Numbered from the stretch's first letter, positions 52,581-64,000 are shown. The stretch is DNA of 64,000 nucleotides from Rhizodiscina lignyota (GCA_010015805.1 ML978121.1:744001-808000); one strand, 5' to 3'. Notes: a model not told the origin generated them from the letters alone. Program-made: numbers and translations.

Positions 52581-53131
52581 CTTGAGGAAGAGGTGGTGCG
52601 ATACTTATGGGTGAGATGGGACGGGCGTTTAGACATTTGTTTAGATAGCAGAGATACCATGGAGCTTGGACCTCCCTACTTATCGCGCTTTCGCAATCGC
52701 CGATAAAAGGCCGAGTTGTTTCACTGGGCTTGGCGGCGCGCGTCTATCGTCCTCATTTCGCCTCAAAGGCGCTCTTGCGAGCATCGCACGTCTTTTCAAC
52801 GAATTTCGCGTTGACTCTAGAAGATCTTCGAGATGATTTACTGTTAGAGTAGTCGCCTACTTTCACCAAGTGTAGGATTTCATCTGCTCACCGTGTTTCA
52901 CCGTGCTCTTCCTGCGCCACACATTTTCTGGTTGCCTGCGAATTCTTAGATTGGCTATCGTTAAGTTCTGCTAATAGAAGGGTAGTCTGCAATGGCTCTT
53001 TTTTCGTGGCTGTGCGTTTCAGGGCGCAATATTAGTTGTATGAGGGCGCCATCTTCCACTTGTTGGTACATATTTCAAATCTGAGAGCTCCTTTATAATA
53101 GCAGTGACGGAACAGCTTCTGAGAAGACGAT

Positions 53132-54943
53132 ATGGGATCTGAATGGTTCGCGGACAATCTCTGCCGTTCTTGCAGACAGGACATCCTTCACCTGCTCAAA
53201 GCTGCTGAATCGGGCCATCTCGACGTAATACAGGATTGTATCGATCGAGGCGTGGACCTTGACTGGAAGGTTGAAGACGATGACTATCTTATCGCGCCTC
53301 AATTGGACGGAACGCCAGCTATTGTCCTAGCCGCAAGCAGAGGACACACCGCCGCTGTGCGACTTCTTCTTGACAACGGTGCCGATGTCAACAACCAAGC
53401 CGATATCGTTGACACTATTGGGACAGCGCTGATGTGCGCCTGCGAGCAGGCTAGGGTCGAGCTTGTTCGGTTGCTCGTGGCACATGGCGCGAAGCCAGAA
53501 TCCTTAGGAGGCTTTGCAGGCAGGACTACGAACGTGTTGCCTGTCTGTGCTTCGCATCGTTATGTCAGGCCGGAAGGGGATCGATACCGATCTGAATGTG
53601 TTAGAATCCTCCTGGAGGCTGGCCACGATCCAAATGTGAAGGACGAGGTGGGCTTGACTGTTTTCGACTATGCCCTGGGGTTCGGAGACATGGAGTTATT
53701 CAACTTACTGACTACCCATGGATCTGGTCGTCAGGAATACATCCAGTGTTCACGTCTAAGTGGCTCAACAGAAGATGAAGCTAGGCGGATGCGCATGATC
53801 GAAGACCTCTGCAAACCACAAGAAGGATACCGAGATGGCTTTGTTTATTTTGAGAAAATATTCGCGGCTGTCGAAGACGGCGATGAGGTTATGCAAGAGG
53901 TCTTGGTGAGGGCGTACGATGCATACTTCCATTATGGCCAGCGTACCAGGAGAACCTGGTCGAATAGGCCTTTCCAGGTAGCCAGTTTCCTTGTTCGACA
54001 TGAGGATTATGTTTCACCGAAGACACTGGAGCTTGTTCTGCTGGCTGGCGCCGTTGTCGACGGTCAAGATGATAATGGCTGGACTGCTTTACACTTTGCG
54101 TTGAGCGACATCGACCGCGAGTTACCTCCAAATATGAATGTGCGGCACTGGCCAAAGAGGGTAGAAAGCGAGGTTTATCCCCGCTTGGACATGCTCAGAC
54201 TTCTTCTCGACCACGGCGCAAGTACCGATATACGTACGAACAAGGAAGGAGACACACCCTTGCACCACGCTGTAATGATCCATCCATCAGGTCCACAAGG
54301 AAGCCCATCTAGGTGGCTGCGGCGCGATATTGAAACCAACGAGACTGCAAAATTCTGTAGCCCTGCAACACTCCCGGCTCTCAAGATGCTTCTCGCGCAT
54401 GGAGCGGATGTGCGGTCTGAGAATGATCTGGGCTACACTCCACTTCACCTTGCAGCAAACCATGAGACAGTACCACTCATAATGCCGCTGCTCGAGGCGG
54501 GCGCAGATATCGAAGCCAGAGCTGCTGATGGCAGCACGCCGTTGCACTGCGCGATGACGATGTTCTGGATTAATATGGAGCATCGACAACTCTCTCATCA
54601 TCCAGCCAGTCTCTTCCCCGGGTGGAACTGGAGGACTCCTGTCGTCGTCAAGACACTCATTGATGCTGGAGCAAATGTGAATGCACGACTGGACGACGGC
54701 AAGACGGTCCTGCACGTCCTCGCGGAGGAGGGTTCCGATCATATGCTGGTATCTGATGTGGAGATGTGTGAGAGTGACGGCCATTGGCTGGGGACCAAGG
54801 ACTTCATCAAGTGGTTTCTACAGCAAGGTGCCGATGTGAACATTCTCGACGATAACGACGAGACCGCAGCGCAGGTCGCCCACAGGCTTGGTAAGCCCAA
54901 TTTAGCAGCGATTCTTGAGGGTAAACTCGGCTGGGCTCATTGA
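53132..54943 (+). CDS. Ankyrin-repeat protein
   Basis: Repeated G.TPLH.A / LL..GADVN motifs (GTPAIVLAASRGH, GWTALHFA, GDTPLHHA, GYTPLHLAA, GSTPLHCA, GKTVLHVLA) across a 603 aa ORF. Confidence 0.92.
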   Translation: MGSEWFADNLCRSCRQDILHLLKAAESGHLDVIQDCIDRGVDLDWKVEDDDYLIAPQLDGTPAIVLAASRGHTAAVRLLLDNGADVNNQADIVDTIGTALMCACEQARVELVRLLVAHGAKPESLGGFAGRTTNVLPVCASHRYVRPEGDRYRSECVRILLEAGHDPNVKDEVGLTVFDYALGFGDMELFNLLTTHGSGRQEYIQCSRLSGSTEDEARRMRMIEDLCKPQEGYRDGFVYFEKIFAAVEDGDEVMQEVLVRAYDAYFHYGQRTRRTWSNRPFQVASFLVRHEDYVSPKTLELVLLAGAVVDGQDDNGWTALHFALSDIDRELPPNMNVRHWPKRVESEVYPRLDMLRLLLDHGASTDIRTNKEGDTPLHHAVMIHPSGPQGSPSRWLRRDIETNETAKFCSPATLPALKMLLAHGADVRSENDLGYTPLHLAANHETVPLIMPLLEAGADIEARAADGSTPLHCAMTMFWINMEHRQLSHHPASLFPGWNWRTPVVVKTLIDAGANVNARLDDGKTVLHVLAEEGSDHMLVSDVEMCESDGHWLGTKDFIKWFLQQGADVNILDDNDETAAQVAHRLGKPNLAAILEGKLGWAH

Positions 54944-55383: not shown

Positions 55384-57069
55384 TCAATGAACGAAGTGGA
55401 CTCCTTCTGTGTTCACATCCTGTTCGAACGGATCGACTTCAGTTTTGCTGAATTGACGTGCCGGAATCTTTTTAGCGAACAACACGTCCAACTCGGCAAA
55501 ACTGCGTGATTTCGTCTCGGGAACGCGGAAATAGACCCATAAAGAGCATAGCAGAGCAGAGCCTGCCCAGAAGAACGCGCTGAATTCACGCCAATGCCAT
55601 TCAGTCGGGTTCAGCTGGTAGGAGATAAGCTCGCCGACCCAGATCTGACATGTGTTGTAGCAGATTCGAGCAAAAACGATAGTGAATGCACGCTCGCGAG
55701 CCGAAGGGATCTCAGAGACGAGTGAGTAGACGACAGGACCGACACCGCTGTCGAAGACAAATTTGCTAAAGATTAAAAGCGCACCAGCTGCCCAACTGGC
55801 GCCTTTGTTTGTCGACGGCGGAATTCCCATAAAGCCGATGATGCAGAACATGACAACCATAACCCAGAGGGAGCCGACAAAGAGTCCTCGTCGCCCAAAC
55901 CATTTCATCGTAAACCAGGCAACCAAAGTACCCAGAAGGCCCATGCAATCCAAACCGATCTGCATGTCGAAAGAATCGCCAGTCGAGAGGCCAGCCTGCT
56001 CGAAGAAATAGACACCGTAATTGAGAAGACCAGCACCGCACAGGCTCTGGACCATCCACGTCAGGCAAGTGATTTCAGTTCGACGGATGTTCTCCTTCTT
56101 GAACATATCCAAGAACCTGCCGTTCCCATCGCGGCCCTTGCGTTCTAGTGCCACGGTGTGCACCATCATCTGCACGGTCTTGCGCGCAGTCTCGTCTCCG
56201 GCAGATTTCTGAGTCAGCCGTTTCACTGACTCGAGCGCATCTTCAGTTCGGCCTTTGCGCACCAGCCACCACGGCGACTCGGGCGCAAAGAAACAGCAGG
56301 CCAAGATGGGGACTGGCCAGAACCACTGGAGTGCGAAAGCTCCGCGGTATGCCCACTGGCTCTTGACCTGCAGTAAACCTCGCAAGGAAACAGTAGACAG
56401 TAGATCACCCCAAAGCCATTGAGCATTAGTCCAGGTTGTGAGGTAGTATCGGAGCTCAATTGGCGCGACCTCGCATGCGTACTGCGTTGTCAGCGTCTGA
56501 AAAATACCCCAGGGAATACCCTGGAGAATTTCACCCGCTAGGAGTGTTTGGATGTTGCCAGCAAAGAAGGGAATGAAGATGAAAGAGATCATGAGAGCGT
56601 GGCCAACAATCATCGTCGGTCGACAACCGAATCGTTCGGTGAAGAAACCAGCGAAAAAGAGTCCAATGATCATGCCGACTTTGGCCCCGTTTGAAAGTCC
56701 CAGCTGCCACGCAGCGGTTAGCTGGTACGTTCCGTCGCCAACGGGATTGCCAAACTTCTTCTGAAAGGCCGGGAAAGCGATGAAAGCCGAAAGCAGTCCA
56801 GAGTCGAAACCATCCATGAGCACAGAACAAGAGAATATAAACGACCAGATGACTGCTTTACGGTAGAGCTTCAACGAGGCCCACGGGCTCATTGCCATTT
56901 CCTCTCGGGTAGCATCACGCGCGTCCATAATGAGTTGCTGTTTGAGCTCCTTCTCTCCCAGCTCCTCCAAATCCTCCGTATGGCCAGCGGTCTCGGCCTT
57001 GGTGACCGTGTCGAAAGCGTTGTAGTTGTCATCATTAGCCGGCGCTGGTGCCTTAGTAGGAGATTCCAT
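55384..57069 (-). CDS. Sugar porter, maltose/alpha-glucoside permease-like (MFS)
   Basis: Intron-less 561 aa ORF with AFQKKFG, GEILQGIPWGIFQTLT..YA.EVAP..LR.YLT, PESPWWLVRKG, RRTEI and PETKSRSFAELD.LF. Confidence 0.93.
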   Translation of the reverse strand: MESPTKAPAPANDDNYNAFDTVTKAETAGHTEDLEELGEKELKQQLIMDARDATREEMAMSPWASLKLYRKAVIWSFIFSCSVLMDGFDSGLLSAFIAFPAFQKKFGNPVGDGTYQLTAAWQLGLSNGAKVGMIIGLFFAGFFTERFGCRPTMIVGHALMISFIFIPFFAGNIQTLLAGEILQGIPWGIFQTLTTQYACEVAPIELRYYLTTWTNAQWLWGDLLSTVSLRGLLQVKSQWAYRGAFALQWFWPVPILACCFFAPESPWWLVRKGRTEDALESVKRLTQKSAGDETARKTVQMMVHTVALERKGRDGNGRFLDMFKKENIRRTEITCLTWMVQSLCGAGLLNYGVYFFEQAGLSTGDSFDMQIGLDCMGLLGTLVAWFTMKWFGRRGLFVGSLWVMVVMFCIIGFMGIPPSTNKGASWAAGALLIFSKFVFDSGVGPVVYSLVSEIPSARERAFTIVFARICYNTCQIWVGELISYQLNPTEWHWREFSAFFWAGSALLCSLWVYFRVPETKSRSFAELDVLFAKKIPARQFSKTEVDPFEQDVNTEGVHFVH

Positions 57070-57688
57070 GACTCCGTAGTATGATCTGTGTATAGAAGTA
57101 GCTGTACTGTGTAAGAGAGTGCGAACGAATCTTGGGATTGCGGTGATGGGGGTAGGGCGGTGGAGGCCATTCGTTAATATGCTATATCAATGCGTGCCAA
57201 GTCTAATAGTCAAAAACCCCGGGTTCAACAGACATAACATCTGACCACTTGAGAAACACTGCATTTAGCTTCTACTCAAAGACACCCCGAGACTGGAGAC
57301 TGGAAGTTCGAATGCGAAAGGCTTCAAGGGCCCAACTGCCGGAGTGACGAAGATGGCTTGCGGGGAGTTAAGGGACCTGAGGAGCCGACCAAAGTTACAG
57401 GATATGATTGGTACCTTCAGATCGGATATCTGGCTTCGTCCTTCTGAAAGTCCCCCGTTCGAGGCACGTCTGAGGCTATGGAGAAACAAGTCAGCCGAAA
57501 TCCACCAATAATGAACCGATATAGAGGCGGAGTTCTCTGCCGACTGCATGTTTGTTCTACTACTGCATCGAAGCCAAGATATTTGTACTTCCCTATGATT
57601 GCTGGTTACTAGAGTCTGTCAAGATTAATTCGTCTGAGAGCATAATTCCATCGTTCACTCGTTGTTAACAGACAAGACCTAGTATACC

Positions 57689-59149
57689 ATGTCCAACACT
57701 CAGGCTTACGATGCACAAGGCAAGGGCCGGTCGACATTCACGGTGCACAAAGAGCGAGTTTTCTACGATGTAATGGATCTGCATCGAGCAACGCTGATTC
57801 AACTTGTCAAGGTCGGGACTGTCGATGCGGAAGCTGGAAAAAGGATCGCAAATGGCATGGCTCAGGCTATTGCGTCTTACGATGATCCTACTGATCCAGC
57901 ATGCCTGGACTACCTTCTGCTAGAGGGTAAATTGCTGGAGCTAGTCGGTCCAACAGCGTCCTTTCTGCATACTGGACGTAGTCGCCAGGACATCACGTCA
58001 ACGCTGTGCCAGATGGAGGCTCGCCATGGTGCTCGAGTATCGGCAAATGCAATCCTAAAGGTCCGCGAGAGTTTGCTGCAAGTAGCGGAGAAGCATATCA
58101 TGACGGTCATTCCAGCATACACGCACGGTGTACCAGCTCAGCCGGAAACATTTGCTCACTACTTGCTATCTTTCCATGACAGTATGGAACGACATTACCA
58201 CCGAATGGAGGAAGCGTACAGCCGCGCTAACCAAGCCGCGCTGGGTTCAGACGTGATGTGCACCTCGCGCTTCCGTCACGACCGACATCTCGCAGCCGCA
58301 TTACTTGGTTTTGACGGGCCGGTTGAGAACTCCCTCGACGCTGTTCACGGCCATGCGGCTGATGCCTTGTGCGAAGTCTCGCAGAATATGAGCCTGGTTT
58401 CGGTTTTGCTGTCGAGGTACATGATGGACATGAACGTTTGGCAAATGACGGCCCATCCCTGGATCTACATGTCACCATCGAAGCTCATGTCTGTGAGCAG
58501 TTCAATGCCCCAGAAACGTAATCCACGGGCCATGGAGTGGGTCCGTAGTATGGGTGCCATCATCAGTGGACAGAGCGAGGCATTTTTGATGGCTGCTCGC
58601 AACCAGCCAACTGGAATGTCTGATATTCGCGATAACATGGCTCGAATTCCCGACGAAATCATGGTGAAGATGCTCGATTTTGTGTCCAACATTGTGCTGT
58701 CTTTGGCTATTAACGTCGAGCGGGCACGCGAGGAGACGGCAAAAGACTACTCGACCATGATCGATGTTGCCGAGTCACTTTACGTTAAAGGCAAAGTGCC
58801 CTTCCGCATTGGCCACCATCTGGCGTCCCTGATGACTGACTACGGCCGCGAGAATGGCCTATACCCTTACCAAATCCCTTATGGTGAGGCTCAGCGGATG
58901 TACAGGTCTATCAGTGACGGACAAGAGTTGCCCATAAGCGAGGCCGAATACAAGGATACGTTAGATCCCGTAGAGTATATCAAGAGCCGACGCGGCATTG
59001 GCGGTCCGCAGGAAGACGAGGTGAAGACCATGATTGCGGAGCGGAAGTCGCGCCTTGAGGCCGACCAGAAGAAGGCTAATATCCGAAGCCAGCAGTTAAC
59101 AGATGCCAAAGCGCGATGCCACCAGGAATTTGAAGACCTTCGAAAATAG
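57689..59149 (+). CDS. Argininosuccinate-lyase-like C-N lyase (fumarase/aspartase superfamily), atypical
   Basis: LHTGRSRQD, PAYTHGVPAQP, SSSMPQKRNP signature loop and VPFR.GHH. Intron-less 486 aa ORF. Confidence 0.85.
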   Translation: MSNTQAYDAQGKGRSTFTVHKERVFYDVMDLHRATLIQLVKVGTVDAEAGKRIANGMAQAIASYDDPTDPACLDYLLLEGKLLELVGPTASFLHTGRSRQDITSTLCQMEARHGARVSANAILKVRESLLQVAEKHIMTVIPAYTHGVPAQPETFAHYLLSFHDSMERHYHRMEEAYSRANQAALGSDVMCTSRFRHDRHLAAALLGFDGPVENSLDAVHGHAADALCEVSQNMSLVSVLLSRYMMDMNVWQMTAHPWIYMSPSKLMSVSSSMPQKRNPRAMEWVRSMGAIISGQSEAFLMAARNQPTGMSDIRDNMARIPDEIMVKMLDFVSNIVLSLAINVERAREETAKDYSTMIDVAESLYVKGKVPFRIGHHLASLMTDYGRENGLYPYQIPYGEAQRMYRSISDGQELPISEAEYKDTLDPVEYIKSRRGIGGPQEDEVKTMIAERKSRLEADQKKANIRSQQLTDAKARCHQEFEDLRK

Positions 59150-60902: not shown

Positions 60903-62663
60903 ATGACGTTTGACCAGTTGAAAATGCCTGGGCTCCATCTCTCTTCAACTATTCCCCCGAAGATCCGGAAAGGAAAACGCAGGAATACCGATCCACGCAC
61001 CAACACGACGATTGTCGGATTCATGGAAACGTATGCAGACGAATGGCGATCCTTTGCGGAACTGGCCGAGAAACTGGAAGAACACTGTAGAGAACTGCTG
61101 AAAGAGCGCGGGATACTCTGCATCGTCACATCCCGTGCCAAAAAGGCAAAATCGCTGCAGAAAAAGCTGGATGACCGAGCCTCGGAGTCGAATAAGGTCT
61201 ACCATAACCCTCAAGCGATATACGATGACATTGTGGACATAGCGGGAGTTCGCATCGCCTTGTACTATCCAAACGACGGGGAGACCGTGGAAGAGCTCTT
61301 GGTCGAAGAGTTCAAAGCAGTGGAAGTGAAAGTGAAGGTCATAGACTCGCCTCCCACAATGAAACTGGATGCTTCAACAACCGACTACCGAGCGCACCAT
61401 TATCGACTACGCTCTCAAAATTGGCCTATGCTTGGCGACAACTACAAGTCTTCATTTTCAATCAAAGTGCGTGCTGAGATTCAAGTTGCATCAGTGGTGC
61501 ACCATGTATGGCAAGAAGTGGCCCACGATCTGCTGTACAAAAAGATGGAAGGAGACCCTACTCCACAGGAAAAAAACCTCCTCAAAATCATCCATGGAAA
61601 CATCACCCAGGTTGAGTTTCAATTGAACTCTCTTAAAGGGGAATTGAAACAGAGGCTAAGCCGAGAAGAGACGCCCTTCGATAATGAGCACCAGCTTCCG
61701 GTCTTTCTTGGCGAATTAGTTGGCCAGCGCACCGACTGGACTAAAGCGAAAATCAAAGTCAGCAATCCAGACTTTCTCCTGACTGCCCTGCAAAGTCTCG
61801 AATCTGACACTCGGAAACAACTCAAAGACGTATTGCATGGCGTCTTCGACAATGCTACGGAGATGCCCAAAGCGATGTTCGAGCCCGGCTCGGCATCAAC
61901 AGTGAACCTTAGCCAGCGAAATTCATCCGAGAAGTCGAAGAACGATCATCAAATCTGGGTCTCACCTGAAGGGAAGCTTGACCTCACTATCGCTATACTC
62001 GACCTTTTGGTGGACGCACGAAGTGGTCGTCAGCTCTCTGAAATAGACCGAACAGTCGCCGGGGAAGAGAGTCTGTATAGAAGCCTCTCGCTACCCAAAA
62101 AGCTCGATCGCTCGTTCTCCCCATCAAACGCCCGCTCCATCTGGAATGGACTCAAGGTAACTACCTATCGAGTAAAGCATGGCTGGCGCAAGAATTCTAT
62201 CTCAGATTCTAAACTTGGCAACAACCTTTCCGAATGTCATCGTGTCGCGCACGCACTCTGCCTACTGCAGCTGTTATTTTCCTTCACCGGTAACGCTTTC
62301 CTTCGCGATATCCCGGAGGCTAAACACTTCGAGCACGCCCAGAGATTGCGCTACCTTGGGCATGCTCTGAAAGCTTTTAAGCCTGGTCACAGCACACAAA
62401 ATGATGTCAGCACGGATGAAGAGAAGGAAAAGATACGTCATTTACTAGATTGGCTAGAAATGATGGGGAAGAATTATGCGGATTTTAATCTTGTCTTGCG
62501 TCTGGTAGAGCGCGGTGTCAAGAGCAACGTTCCTGATGTGGGCGATTCAATCAACAAAATCACGAAAGACGTCGACGGTTTAATATCAAGGGAAAGCATA
62601 TCTAATGAAGTACATCGGAAAGCCAAGCCATCGGGGCGGTGGACTGCCATTGCAAAGCATTAA
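60903..62663 (+). CDS. RelA/SpoT synthetase-domain protein (small alarmone synthetase-like) with uncharacterised C-terminal extension
   Basis: SRAKKAKSLQKK (RxKxxxSxxxK), DIVDIAGVRI, DYRAHHY, AEIQVAS and W.EVAHDLLYK appear in the expected order within about aa 75-215. Intron-less 586 aa ORF. Confidence 0.88.
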   Translation: MTFDQLKMPGLHLSSTIPPKIRKGKRRNTDPRTNTTIVGFMETYADEWRSFAELAEKLEEHCRELLKERGILCIVTSRAKKAKSLQKKLDDRASESNKVYHNPQAIYDDIVDIAGVRIALYYPNDGETVEELLVEEFKAVEVKVKVIDSPPTMKLDASTTDYRAHHYRLRSQNWPMLGDNYKSSFSIKVRAEIQVASVVHHVWQEVAHDLLYKKMEGDPTPQEKNLLKIIHGNITQVEFQLNSLKGELKQRLSREETPFDNEHQLPVFLGELVGQRTDWTKAKIKVSNPDFLLTALQSLESDTRKQLKDVLHGVFDNATEMPKAMFEPGSASTVNLSQRNSSEKSKNDHQIWVSPEGKLDLTIAILDLLVDARSGRQLSEIDRTVAGEESLYRSLSLPKKLDRSFSPSNARSIWNGLKVTTYRVKHGWRKNSISDSKLGNNLSECHRVAHALCLLQLLFSFTGNAFLRDIPEAKHFEHAQRLRYLGHALKAFKPGHSTQNDVSTDEEKEKIRHLLDWLEMMGKNYADFNLVLRLVERGVKSNVPDVGDSINKITKDVDGLISRESISNEVHRKAKPSGRWTAIAKH

Positions 62664-63036
62664 GCAAGTGTAGCAGACGCTAAACTAGATACCTGGAGTA
62701 TCAAATTCATTCCACTGCAGAAGCTGCTTAATAGTGATTAATTCAAAGCAGCTAAGTTCCCTTCAATCCAGACATCGTAATGCCCGAGAGTGGCGATGAT
62801 CGACCGACAAGGCTGTGATTTGACTGGTCGTCGCGAGGCTGCAGCACGCGCGTCCTGCAAGGCAGATCCGACATCGTATAAGGCAAAGGAACTACTGAGG
62901 CTACTTGTCGAGTAGAAGTCCAGTTAAATTGCCGTAGAATTCCCACTGGACCTAGCAAGTGGCTGAGAAAGAGAACTCCACACGAGGCCGACTCAATCGC
63001 TGTCTCCGGTCGGAACCATGAAATTTTACTGATTCC

Positions 63037-64000
63037 TTGAGATTGTCCAAGCCGTCGAGAGCCCTCAACCTGTCCATCAAGATGAACGAATCGTACAGGC
63101 ATTTTGCCGAGAGACAGCAAAAACGTAATCCGAGTCTTGAAACCCTACTACAATTTCTTGCAACTGCGAGTTCAAGAACCAGCACATGCCGCATCATCAG
63201 CCTAGACTTCTACAACGATACTTTGAGTCCTCGACAGCGAGAGATTCAGGTCGAAAGACTTGCTCATCTACTGGGTGATCAGGGAGATGGATTCGTTGGA
63301 CGGTTCGTAATCTGCGAGGATTTGGACCCTTTGATCATTGAATGGTTAGGAACGGCACTGCAAATTGACCCAATGTTCTTCGCGGCCCACATACACCACA
63401 CTTCTGTTGGTCCAGGCTCCGATCCGCCTTCTTTGGTCACACTGTCTTCAATCTTGCATGCCAAAGAGTTTGTAAACTTACACTTCCATCGTGTCATCGA
63501 GTTCCAAGACGCACCGCCCAATCGACGAATGTTCCAGACATCCATTGTGCCACGGAAGATAATGGCAGTGCGAGTTACTGGAAACAAATGGCTGGGCCTT
63601 GAGCAACACTGCTGTTCAATATTGAGAGTCTCGTCGCAGAGCATCCCATGGCTATGTATGCAAGATATTTTTTAGGTTCAGCGTCAGTCATAGACTAATA
63701 ACTCCTAGACTTGATTCTTGTTGATCCTCCTTCCACTAACGCTATTGCTAAGGGCCACAGGGACAAGAGTTGTTCATCACCGACGAGTGTTCGCATACGT
63801 CCATTCCAAGGCGGATACGAGGATTTCCTCCCAGCTCAGCTACCCGACCAGCGAGACAGTGATATTGGGCCAGGGCGTCACTCAATGCTTGATGACATTG
63901 CCTATTACTGGACCAGGGCGCCTCAGTTGCACTTCAGGCGCGACTCTCCTACTCTTCTTTCCGCGTGCTATATACCGCTGCATCTTGTAGCCTCGGAATG
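63037..64000 (+). CDS. Fungal CorA-like protein, N-terminal part (runs off the window, start uncertain)
   Basis: ICEDL....IE.LG..L.IDP.FFA.HI. Intron 63656-63708 continues into YLILVDPP, PFQGGYEDF, SMLDDIAYYW and PLHLVASEW, with the frame open to the window end. These motifs are recalled from divergent fungal CorA-like proteins. The diagnostic TM/GMN region lies outside the window. Confidence 0.65.

Follow-up and report, generated by a model that had tools for sequence, protein, structure and literature searches.

Could a filamentous fungus keep a nucleotide-forming enzyme of bacterial type together with a membrane protein on which its product might act? The question is raised by the end of a 64,000-nucleotide stretch of the Rhizodiscina lignyota genome (GCA_010015805.1 ML978121.1:744001-808000), hereafter called the window, where a gene for a RelA_SpoT protein resembling small alarmone synthetases (SAS), gene A, is followed by a gene for a divergent CorA-like membrane protein, gene B. 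Signalling of the (p)ppGpp type is regarded as bacterial and plastidial. In the passages of Dyrka et al. (PMC4986451) that deal with the RelA_SpoT domain, it is described as having been known until then from bacteria and plant chloroplasts only, and the role of the fungal domains is raised as a question. Here we report that the adjacency of the two genes recurs in divergent fungal lineages and is restricted to one clade of each family. Genes A and B very probably constitute a functionally coupled pair.

The gene pair

The original prediction described an intact RelA/SpoT synthetase-domain gene with a CorA-like gene on the same strand, about 370 bp after its stop. Gene A is indeed one unbroken open reading frame (ORF), and a 100% identical record of 586 amino acids (aa), P0001, was found in the protein database. 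Gene B starts with the ATG at 63082 on the same (+) strand as gene A, as had been described, and its second exon extends past the end of the window. The distance needed correction: 370 bp fits a TTG at 63037, which opens the mechanically defined ORF, but counted to the first ATG the spacer is 418 bp. Joining the two exons of gene B in phase yields ...PWL-Y-LILVDPP..., which matches the database protein P0022 exactly. P0022, the complete gene B product of 513 aa and the one longer protein obtained with exon 1 as query, is placed on the same 4.06-Mb contig as P0001; the window codes for its residues 1-288, of which residues 193-288 are the translation of exon 2. The features of the pair are as follows.

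60903..62663, + strand: gene A (P0001), 586 aa, RelA_SpoT / SAS-like; one exon, stop included
61131..61547, + strand: gene A catalytic core, residues 77-215, from Pfam and invariant alignment columns
61686..62660, + strand: gene A C-terminal region, residues 262-586, mostly helical, mixed model confidence
62664..63081, no strand: spacer from gene A stop to gene B ATG, 418 bp, from the sequence
63082..63655, + strand: gene B exon 1, N-terminal cytoplasmic domain, P0022 residues 1 to ~191, 100% identity to P0022
63656..63708, + strand: gene B intron, 53 nt, phase 1, GTATGC...TAG, from the sequence
63709..64000, + strand: gene B exon 2, first part, P0022 residues ~192-288, from the translation of ORF 63711..63998

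Conserved linkage in fungal loci

Linkage of the two genes in other genomes had been set beforehand as a test of the pairing, and such linkage was found. Loci were collected with a CorA-like alignment alone, which gave 80 loci from metagenome contigs (748 kb). The query alignment comprised the 41 near-full-length sequences of at least 103 CorA-like matches, short and probably partial models being omitted. RelA_SpoT genes in the loci, which are designated here with L numbers, were detected with a hidden Markov model (HMM) built from 16 relatives and by tblastn with the enzymes of the loci. A RelA_SpoT homologue was present in 17 of the 80 loci. The two genes were immediate neighbours in 13 loci, 270-1130 bp apart, and were separated by 5-9 kb in three more, i.e., L088, L094, and L099. 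Eleven of the adjacent pairs are oriented head to head with 450-1130 bp between the genes (L086, L089, L090, L091, L093, L097, L098, L101, L104, L105, and L114, of which L104 and L105 are identical in sequence), and two, L119 and L121, are arranged in tandem as in the window, with a spacer of ~270 bp. Only a C-terminal fragment of a RelA_SpoT gene was found in L084 (7686-8240, - strand), while its near-twin L085 carries ORFs of a piggyBac-type (DDE_Tnp_1_7) transposase upstream instead (1129-2406, + strand). Judging from these two loci, some lineages seem to be losing the pair. The remaining 63 loci were mostly too short to judge or belonged to other CorA-like clades.

The closest CorA-like relatives of P0022 are found in L082 and L083, which are identical to each other in sequence and share 48% identity with it. 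As a separate observation, an ORF with a HET (heterokaryon incompatibility) domain (L082 4824-6254, - strand) is placed just downstream of the CorA-like gene of L082, convergent with it, in a locus of 6.5 kb without a RelA_SpoT gene. HET genes are abundant in these fungi, so this neighbourhood may be due to chance.

Phylogeny and co-divergence

A quick maximum-likelihood tree of the channel was computed on the large exon, from which high-scoring segment pairs shorter than 200 aa were left out, so that L099 and L121 are unplaced. P0022 and every placed RelA-linked locus fell within one CorA-like clade of 47 rows, supported by a Shimodaira-Hasegawa-like approximate likelihood ratio test (SH-aLRT) value of 96. 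The enzyme was present in 14 of the 17 distinct assessable loci within this clade versus 0 of 11 outside it (342 kb; Fisher p = 3.4e-5). The clade loci without the enzyme were L082 (equal to L083), L085, and L087; in L088, the twin of L087, it is found 8.7 kb away, past the flank covered by L087. Pairwise distances of enzymes and channels were strongly correlated, with a Pearson coefficient of 0.91 over 13 pairs including that of the window, a value reached by 0 of 5000 Mantel permutations. This correlation reflects shared descent as well, and it is therefore a sign of co-inheritance and not of interaction. The pairs represent at least six deep lineages; compared across lineages, over 48% of aligned positions differ in the channels and over 62% in the enzymes.

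The enzyme tree comprised 12 of the 17 locus enzymes, 6 named and 6 unnamed fungal proteins, and 27 bacterial or unassigned rows; L084, L098, L105, L114, and L121 were omitted as partial or duplicate. The fungal sequences occupied one side of the tree, and the CorA-linked members were dispersed through that side.

These results bear on one alternative, i.e., that the adjacency is due to chance or is a functionless relic of local synteny. CorA-like genes form a large ascomycete family, with at least 103 matches, and the closest relatives of P0022, L082 and L083, are without a partner, both of which speak for it. However, the partner occurs in 17 of the 80 loci, all of one clade, in two orientations and between otherwise unrelated flanks, and no partner was found in the 342 kb surrounding CorA-like genes from outside that clade. 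We regard this explanation, already disfavoured, as highly improbable.

Genes around the pairs

ORFs from the 17 linked loci and from the last 16 kb of the window were compared all against all. Three families recurred beside the pairs, namely the enzyme, the channel, and a C2H2 zinc-finger protein; the other small ORF clusters checked, found in four or five loci, map within these genes, read from the other strand or in a different frame. Since no flanking gene except that for the C2H2 protein is recurrent, the adjacency is not simply a relic of wider synteny. The C2H2 gene was found in 8 of the 17 linked loci, within ~4 kb of the RelA_SpoT gene, and the proteins have the C-terminal motif Y-R-C..G-C.K..K.W.R-L-D-S-F-K-Q-H in common. 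It was found neither in the window nor in the 63 loci without the enzyme. Its positions are as follows.

L089 6094-7269, + strand: C2H2 gene
L091 2326-3630, - strand: C2H2 gene
L093 4261-5334, + strand: C2H2 gene
L094 16569-17243, + strand: C2H2 gene
L098 6275-6859, + strand: C2H2 gene
L099 3149-4171, - strand: C2H2 gene
L101 2267-3670, - strand: C2H2 gene
L105 3752-4846, - strand: C2H2 gene

The C2H2 gene may code for a cluster-specific regulator. The two genes could belong to a stress or ion-homeostasis cluster, co-regulated without direct interplay of the products and kept together for a bidirectional promoter, with the C2H2 factor added in one lineage. The orientation of the pairs is in line with such a cluster, 11 of the 13 adjacent ones being head to head with 450-1130 bp between, and so is the resemblance of the zinc-finger gene in the eight loci to cluster-specific regulators of fungal gene clusters. 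Yet the tandem pairs of the window, L119, and L121 stay adjacent without a shared promoter, the zinc-finger gene is missing from the window, and co-divergence over lineages more than 50% diverged exceeds what co-regulation needs. Co-regulation as the whole explanation is in our view rather unlikely.

Two suggestions about the surroundings of the pair were not borne out, namely that it lies within an accessory-looking island and that ankyrin genes are part of the module. The G+C content is unremarkable, 0.49-0.51 at the pair versus 0.48-0.555 over the whole window, and no transposon ORF was seen among the window ORFs scanned. Elsewhere the window contains ordinary fungal genes, i.e., those for a flippase, cohesin SCC3, UreD, a TFIIIC subunit, and a mitochondrial carrier. 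The following genes were found by ORF scan upstream of the pair.

53123..54943, + strand: ankyrin-repeat protein, 606-aa ORF, ~6 kb upstream of the pair
55384..57186, - strand: sugar transporter
57689..59149, + strand: Lyase_1 / argininosuccinate-lyase-like protein

None of these three genes recurs beside the pair in the 17 linked loci, where only the C2H2 gene does so. A further ankyrin ORF was found in one unlinked locus, L127.

Gene A, a RelA_SpoT protein

The synthetase domain proposed for gene A was confirmed by Pfam, as RelA_SpoT (PF04607) matched residues 77-215 with an E value of 4.6e-11 and 43.4 bits against a cut-off of 27. The core carries R78-x-K80-x3-S84-x3-K88, D112-x-x-G115-x-R117, Y162/H166, and E192-I-Q194-V-A-S, of which we take the first, second, and last to be the ATP-binding and catalytic motifs of synthetases named R-x-K-x3-S-x3-K, D-x-x-G-x-R, and E-x-Q-I-R-T. 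In the alignments, residues R78, K80, K88, D112, G115, R117, Y162, H166, E192, Q194, H208, Y212, and K213 were invariant across bacterial and fungal relatives, and the first two motifs are kept. The third motif has kept Glu and Gln, but it reads EIQVAS in P0001 and EIQV(A/V)S in the fungal clade versus EIQIRT in solved SAS.

An AlphaFold2 model of gene A, built with 36 relatives, had a mean predicted local distance difference test (pLDDT) score of 74.4; it was confident over residues 30-330 and fell below 50 at residues 332-342 and 377-438. The best fold match in PDB was Bacillus subtilis SAS1 (5dec), with a template modelling (TM) score by target of 0.79-0.80 and an E value of 6e-8 in Foldseek. 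RelP (6ex0) and YwaC (6fgk) came next; CapRel and long RelA/SpoT homologue (RSH) enzymes were placed lower, the CapRel chains 9erv and 7ztb at ranks 40-41 with TM by target of 0.33-0.35. A profile of the gene A family also recovered solved SAS sequences (E 9e-12 to 9e-6). From its predicted fold and its motifs, gene A may code for a nucleotide pyrophosphokinase of the small-alarmone-synthetase type; this activity is suggested as one part of the tentative explanation developed below.

The C-terminal half is of another character. No Pfam family was found in its 325 residues. A HMMER search with gene A against 1.84 billion representatives gave 2881 matches at E <= 0.001, the top non-self match scoring 143 bits, and no alignment went past ~residue 358 among the best 150 of these. 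The ESM Atlas gave no family for the P0001 C-terminus, merely helical-repeat look-alikes with TM <0.5, and the BLASTP alignment of P0001 with the enzyme of the tandem locus L119 was confined to the catalytic domain. This fast-evolving, helical region most likely regulates the enzyme or senses an input. RelA_SpoT was the only domain that Pfam found in gene A, with no NACHT, NB-ARC, or repeat domain. Among the best 150 of the 2881 relatives the longest was no more than 711 aa, so that none of these 150 has the length of a NOD-like receptor (NLR).

Gene B, a divergent CorA-like protein

The identification of the downstream gene as CorA-like was upheld with the complete protein. Pfam CorA (PF01544) matched residues 363-460 of P0022 with an E value of 1.3e-7 and 31.7 bits against a cut-off of 27, while neither exon as encoded in the window gave a CorA match, because this domain falls beyond the window. 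The same is the case for the parts coding for the stalk helices, the two transmembrane helices, and the SME site described below. A model of P0022 built with 41 family members had a pLDDT of 85.6, with an alpha/beta domain at the N-terminus, long helices in the stalk, and two terminal helices at residues 358-429 and 442-482. It matched Thermotoga maritima CorA (2iub/8tme/4i0u) in Foldseek over 427-447 columns with E ~2e-7 and probability 1.0. By analogy with CorA, P0022 probably forms a pentamer.

The Gly-Met-Asn (GMN) signature, which in CorA marks the end of the first transmembrane helix, was not kept, as P0022 reads F-S-M-E at that site. Among the 41 aligned family members GMN was found in 3, SMN in 19, and SMS in 13. 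The motif at the pore end is nonetheless near-invariant, with F428 and M430 in all members and S429, at the Gly position, in 37 of 41. The GMN signature is needed for Mg2+ transport, and P0022 is therefore unlikely to be an ordinary Mg2+ importer. The family search gave at least 103 matches, and every match with a named source is, as we take it from taxonomy, a filamentous ascomycete. Source names among the CorA-like and RelA_SpoT matches include Halenospora varia, Phialocephala subalpina, Mollisia scopiformis, Talaromyces islandicus, Xylaria spp., Neofusicoccum, Lasiodiplodia, Periconia, and Melanomma. The N-terminal domain of P0022 resembled Ascomycota-only clusters in the ESM Atlas.

Two members of the same CorA-like clade, P0110 from Clonostachys byssicola and P0118 from C. 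solani, have a C-terminal nucleotidyltransferase domain of the Pol-beta type (PF18765 and PF01909). These could be genuine fusions, or gene models in which two adjacent genes were merged, and the second transmembrane helix is apparently absent in P0118. As in the pair, the CorA-like clade is here joined to a domain of nucleotidyltransferase fold, but to a minimal nucleotidyltransferase and not to an RSH enzyme. We see in these proteins a second, independent association of this channel family with a nucleotidyltransferase.

Bacterial relatives of gene A

Scanning one genome per prokaryote species gave 361 relatives of gene A, and the context of 80 of these was analysed. The 433 neighbouring ORFs were clustered, and representatives of 16 recurrent or selected clusters were scanned. 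No recurrent membrane partner was found in the 80 bacterial loci, the neighbours being housekeeping or mobile-element genes. When these loci were searched with the fungal CorA-like HMM, one six-frame ORF was detected in the unrelated locus L005 (E 1e-5), where a long RSH with an HD domain lies at a distance of 3.5 kb, and a second ORF was found with E 0.011. With no CorA partner in bacteria, at least among these 80 loci, the pairing appears to be a fungal development and not an inherited operon.

The bacterial relatives have C-terminal domains of their own, with TPR repeats in some (P0002, P0005, and L037). Among the bacterial homologues P0003-P0020, the common form of 423 aa has a conserved C-terminal stretch, R-x-L-R-N-x3-H-G, at alignment columns ~540-560, which to us recalls the R-x4-6-H motif of HEPN domains, as we assume that motif to read; no HEPN domain was found by Pfam in P0006, one of these proteins. 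In 9 of the 80 loci (L017, L027, L031, L033, L051, L057, L064, L065, and L077) the RelA_SpoT gene adjoins a large serine recombinase, and the two together separate the halves of a split flavoprotein gene beside that for dipicolinate synthase subunit A. This arrangement looks like an intervening element inside spoVFB with the synthetase as cargo.

The bacterial context has a bearing on another explanation, in which enzyme and CorA-like protein act on each other directly as a toxin-immunity or anchor pair, with no diffusible signal. A toxic enzyme would deplete ATP or pyrophosphorylate tRNA, and the CorA-like protein would restrain it at the membrane, or sense a cue and release it. Toxic SAS (toxSAS) enzymes modify tRNA, and CapRel chains are among the fold matches of gene A, although at ranks 40-41. 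The bacterial relatives are single-gene, fused-domain proteins (TPR or other) with no effector partner, which fits an enzyme that is itself the effector. Tight linkage and co-divergence, with a faster rate of evolution in the enzyme than in the channel, are typical of proteins that interact. On the other hand, a channel fold with a near-invariant F-S-M motif in the pore region argues for a function in the membrane over that of a mere anchor. We consider such a direct pair unlikely, though less so than the co-regulated cluster.

Proposed module and known systems

The explanation that we favour, and hold only tentatively, is a conserved and coupled two-gene module of filamentous ascomycetes in which the synthetase controls the CorA-like pore. 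A stress or non-self cue would switch the enzyme on. Using ATP, the active enzyme would make a 3'-pyrophosphorylated nucleotide of the (p)ppGpp or (p)ppApp kind, and this product, and not the enzyme protein, would bind the cytoplasmic domain of the CorA-like protein, so that the pore is opened or closed. Altered ion flux or membrane integrity would then lead to growth arrest or cell death. That the CorA-like protein is a nucleotide-gated channel is conceivable by analogy, and we give this step on its own slightly less credence than the module as a whole. A more elaborate version appears doubtful, i.e., an ascomycete second messenger of the alarmone type, with a horizontally acquired SAS, a C-terminal sensor, and a nucleotide that gates a CorA-derived pore for regulated cell death or dormancy, independently of NLRs; such a pathway would be a fungal counterpart of the bacterial defence systems that combine a signal with a membrane effector.

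The analogy that favours nucleotide gating is with type III CRISPR, where S-adenosylmethionine-AMP (SAM-AMP) made by Cas10 activates a CorA-family effector. In the sections on this effector in the report on the Bacteroides fragilis type III system (PMC10600005), SAM-AMP binds the CRISPR-associated CorA-family protein and is thought to open its pore, the soluble N-terminal domain being proposed as the signal binder and the C-terminal helices as the pore. We know of no other characterised CorA-family protein that is linked to a nucleotide-forming enzyme. As with Cas10 and CorA, the fungal loci link a nucleotide-forming enzyme genetically to a divergent CorA-family membrane protein. They differ in that the generator is of RSH/SAS type, not Cas10, that the host is a eukaryote, and that no cas10, NrN, DEDD, or lyase gene recurs beside the fungal pair. 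Furthermore, at its N-terminus the fungal protein matches the cytoplasmic domain of canonical CorA, whereas the N-terminal domain of CRISPR CorA is described in those sections as a unique fold (PMC10600005).

Gene A shares its predicted catalytic fold and its motifs, the third in part, with RelQ/RelP SAS and with toxSAS/CapRel, and like fused CapRel (9erv, 7ztb) it consists of one catalytic domain followed by a non-catalytic C-terminal region. Unlike SAS and toxSAS, it has EIQVAS for EIQIRT and a C-terminal region without a detectable relative, and its partner is a membrane protein, in contrast to the small antitoxin or hydrolase of toxSAS/CapRel. A 'FunRel' subfamily is named in passages of the toxSAS preprint (10.1101/575399). 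Fungal RelA_SpoT domains are described in passages of Dyrka et al. 2014 (PMC4986451) and of PMC12258605 as N-terminal effector domains of NLRs; on that description gene A has the same Pfam domain, the occurrence in filamentous ascomycetes, and a presumed context of conflict or cell death in common with them, but lacks NACHT/NB-ARC and repeats. P0022, as modelled, resembles canonical CorA/Mrs2/Alr1 in its fold from end to end, with a long stalk helix and two transmembrane helices at the C-terminus, and differs from them in having SME for GMN and an N-terminal domain from an Ascomycota-restricted family.

An export module is a further alternative, in which an alarmone-like nucleotide leaves the hypha through the CorA-like pore and interferes with bacterial neighbours. 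Loss of GMN permits a substrate other than Mg2+. However, the CorA pore is narrow and cation-selective in solved structures, and we know of no CorA-family nucleotide exporter. Manipulation of prokaryotic signalling is nevertheless raised for fungal RelA_SpoT domains in the passages of Dyrka et al. devoted to them (PMC4986451). We judge export to be improbable.

Several points weigh against the module as we propose it. Firstly, P0001 is a long-branch member: it joins the fungal side of the enzyme tree with an unstarred SH-aLRT of 90 and a branch length of 2.32, and its identity to the fungal partner enzymes is 22-27%. A profile of the C-terminal region from nine fungal relatives gave E 0.9 against the P0001 C-terminus, which is not significant on a background of 2000 shuffles and all collected proteins; MAFFT nonetheless aligns C445, L455, W515, and W517 of P0001 with the partner enzymes. 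Given the long branch and the unrecognised C-terminus, orthology of P0001 is based on the catalytic domain and the shared neighbour. Secondly, the linkage survey was anchored on the CorA-like side only. From the enzyme side, the 785-aa Xylaria flabelliformis model P0278 contains a short-chain dehydrogenase together with the RelA_SpoT protein, whose length is 437 aa in four other Xylaria records; P0278 is probably a merged gene model, and the neighbour on that side is no CorA-like gene. Several loci share a metagenome sample prefix, and these may come from a few genomes with paralogous pairs and not from independent species. No RelA_SpoT homologue was found near the closest relatives of P0022, L082 and L083, within ~2.8 kb upstream and 2.2 kb downstream. 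Thirdly, no hydrolase that could serve as an 'off switch' beside the pair recurs in the linked loci, and with EIQV(A/V)S instead of EIQIRT the acceptor may differ from a guanine nucleotide, an RNA or protein substrate being conceivable.

A full-text literature search, with supplementary tables outside it, found no relevant description of a RelA_SpoT or alarmone gene paired with CorA in fungi, and nothing relevant on small alarmone synthetases or toxSAS in fungi or on CorA in Pezizomycotina. The pair is thus apparently undescribed; the logic of a nucleotide-forming enzyme with a membrane effector is known, while the components and the eukaryotic host are new.

Significance

Among eukaryotes, gene pairs that are both conserved and functionally linked are uncommon, and the known fungal ones, e.g., the amyloid NLR/effector pairs, mark immune or cell-death pathways. 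A dedicated membrane partner turns the question of what fungal RelA_SpoT domains do into a concrete two-gene system. Should the channel indeed be gated by a nucleotide, the combination of a nucleotide signal with a CorA effector, known to date from type III CRISPR alone (PMC10600005), would reach eukaryotes. A function would then be assigned to a large, Ascomycota-specific family of GMN-less CorA-like proteins.

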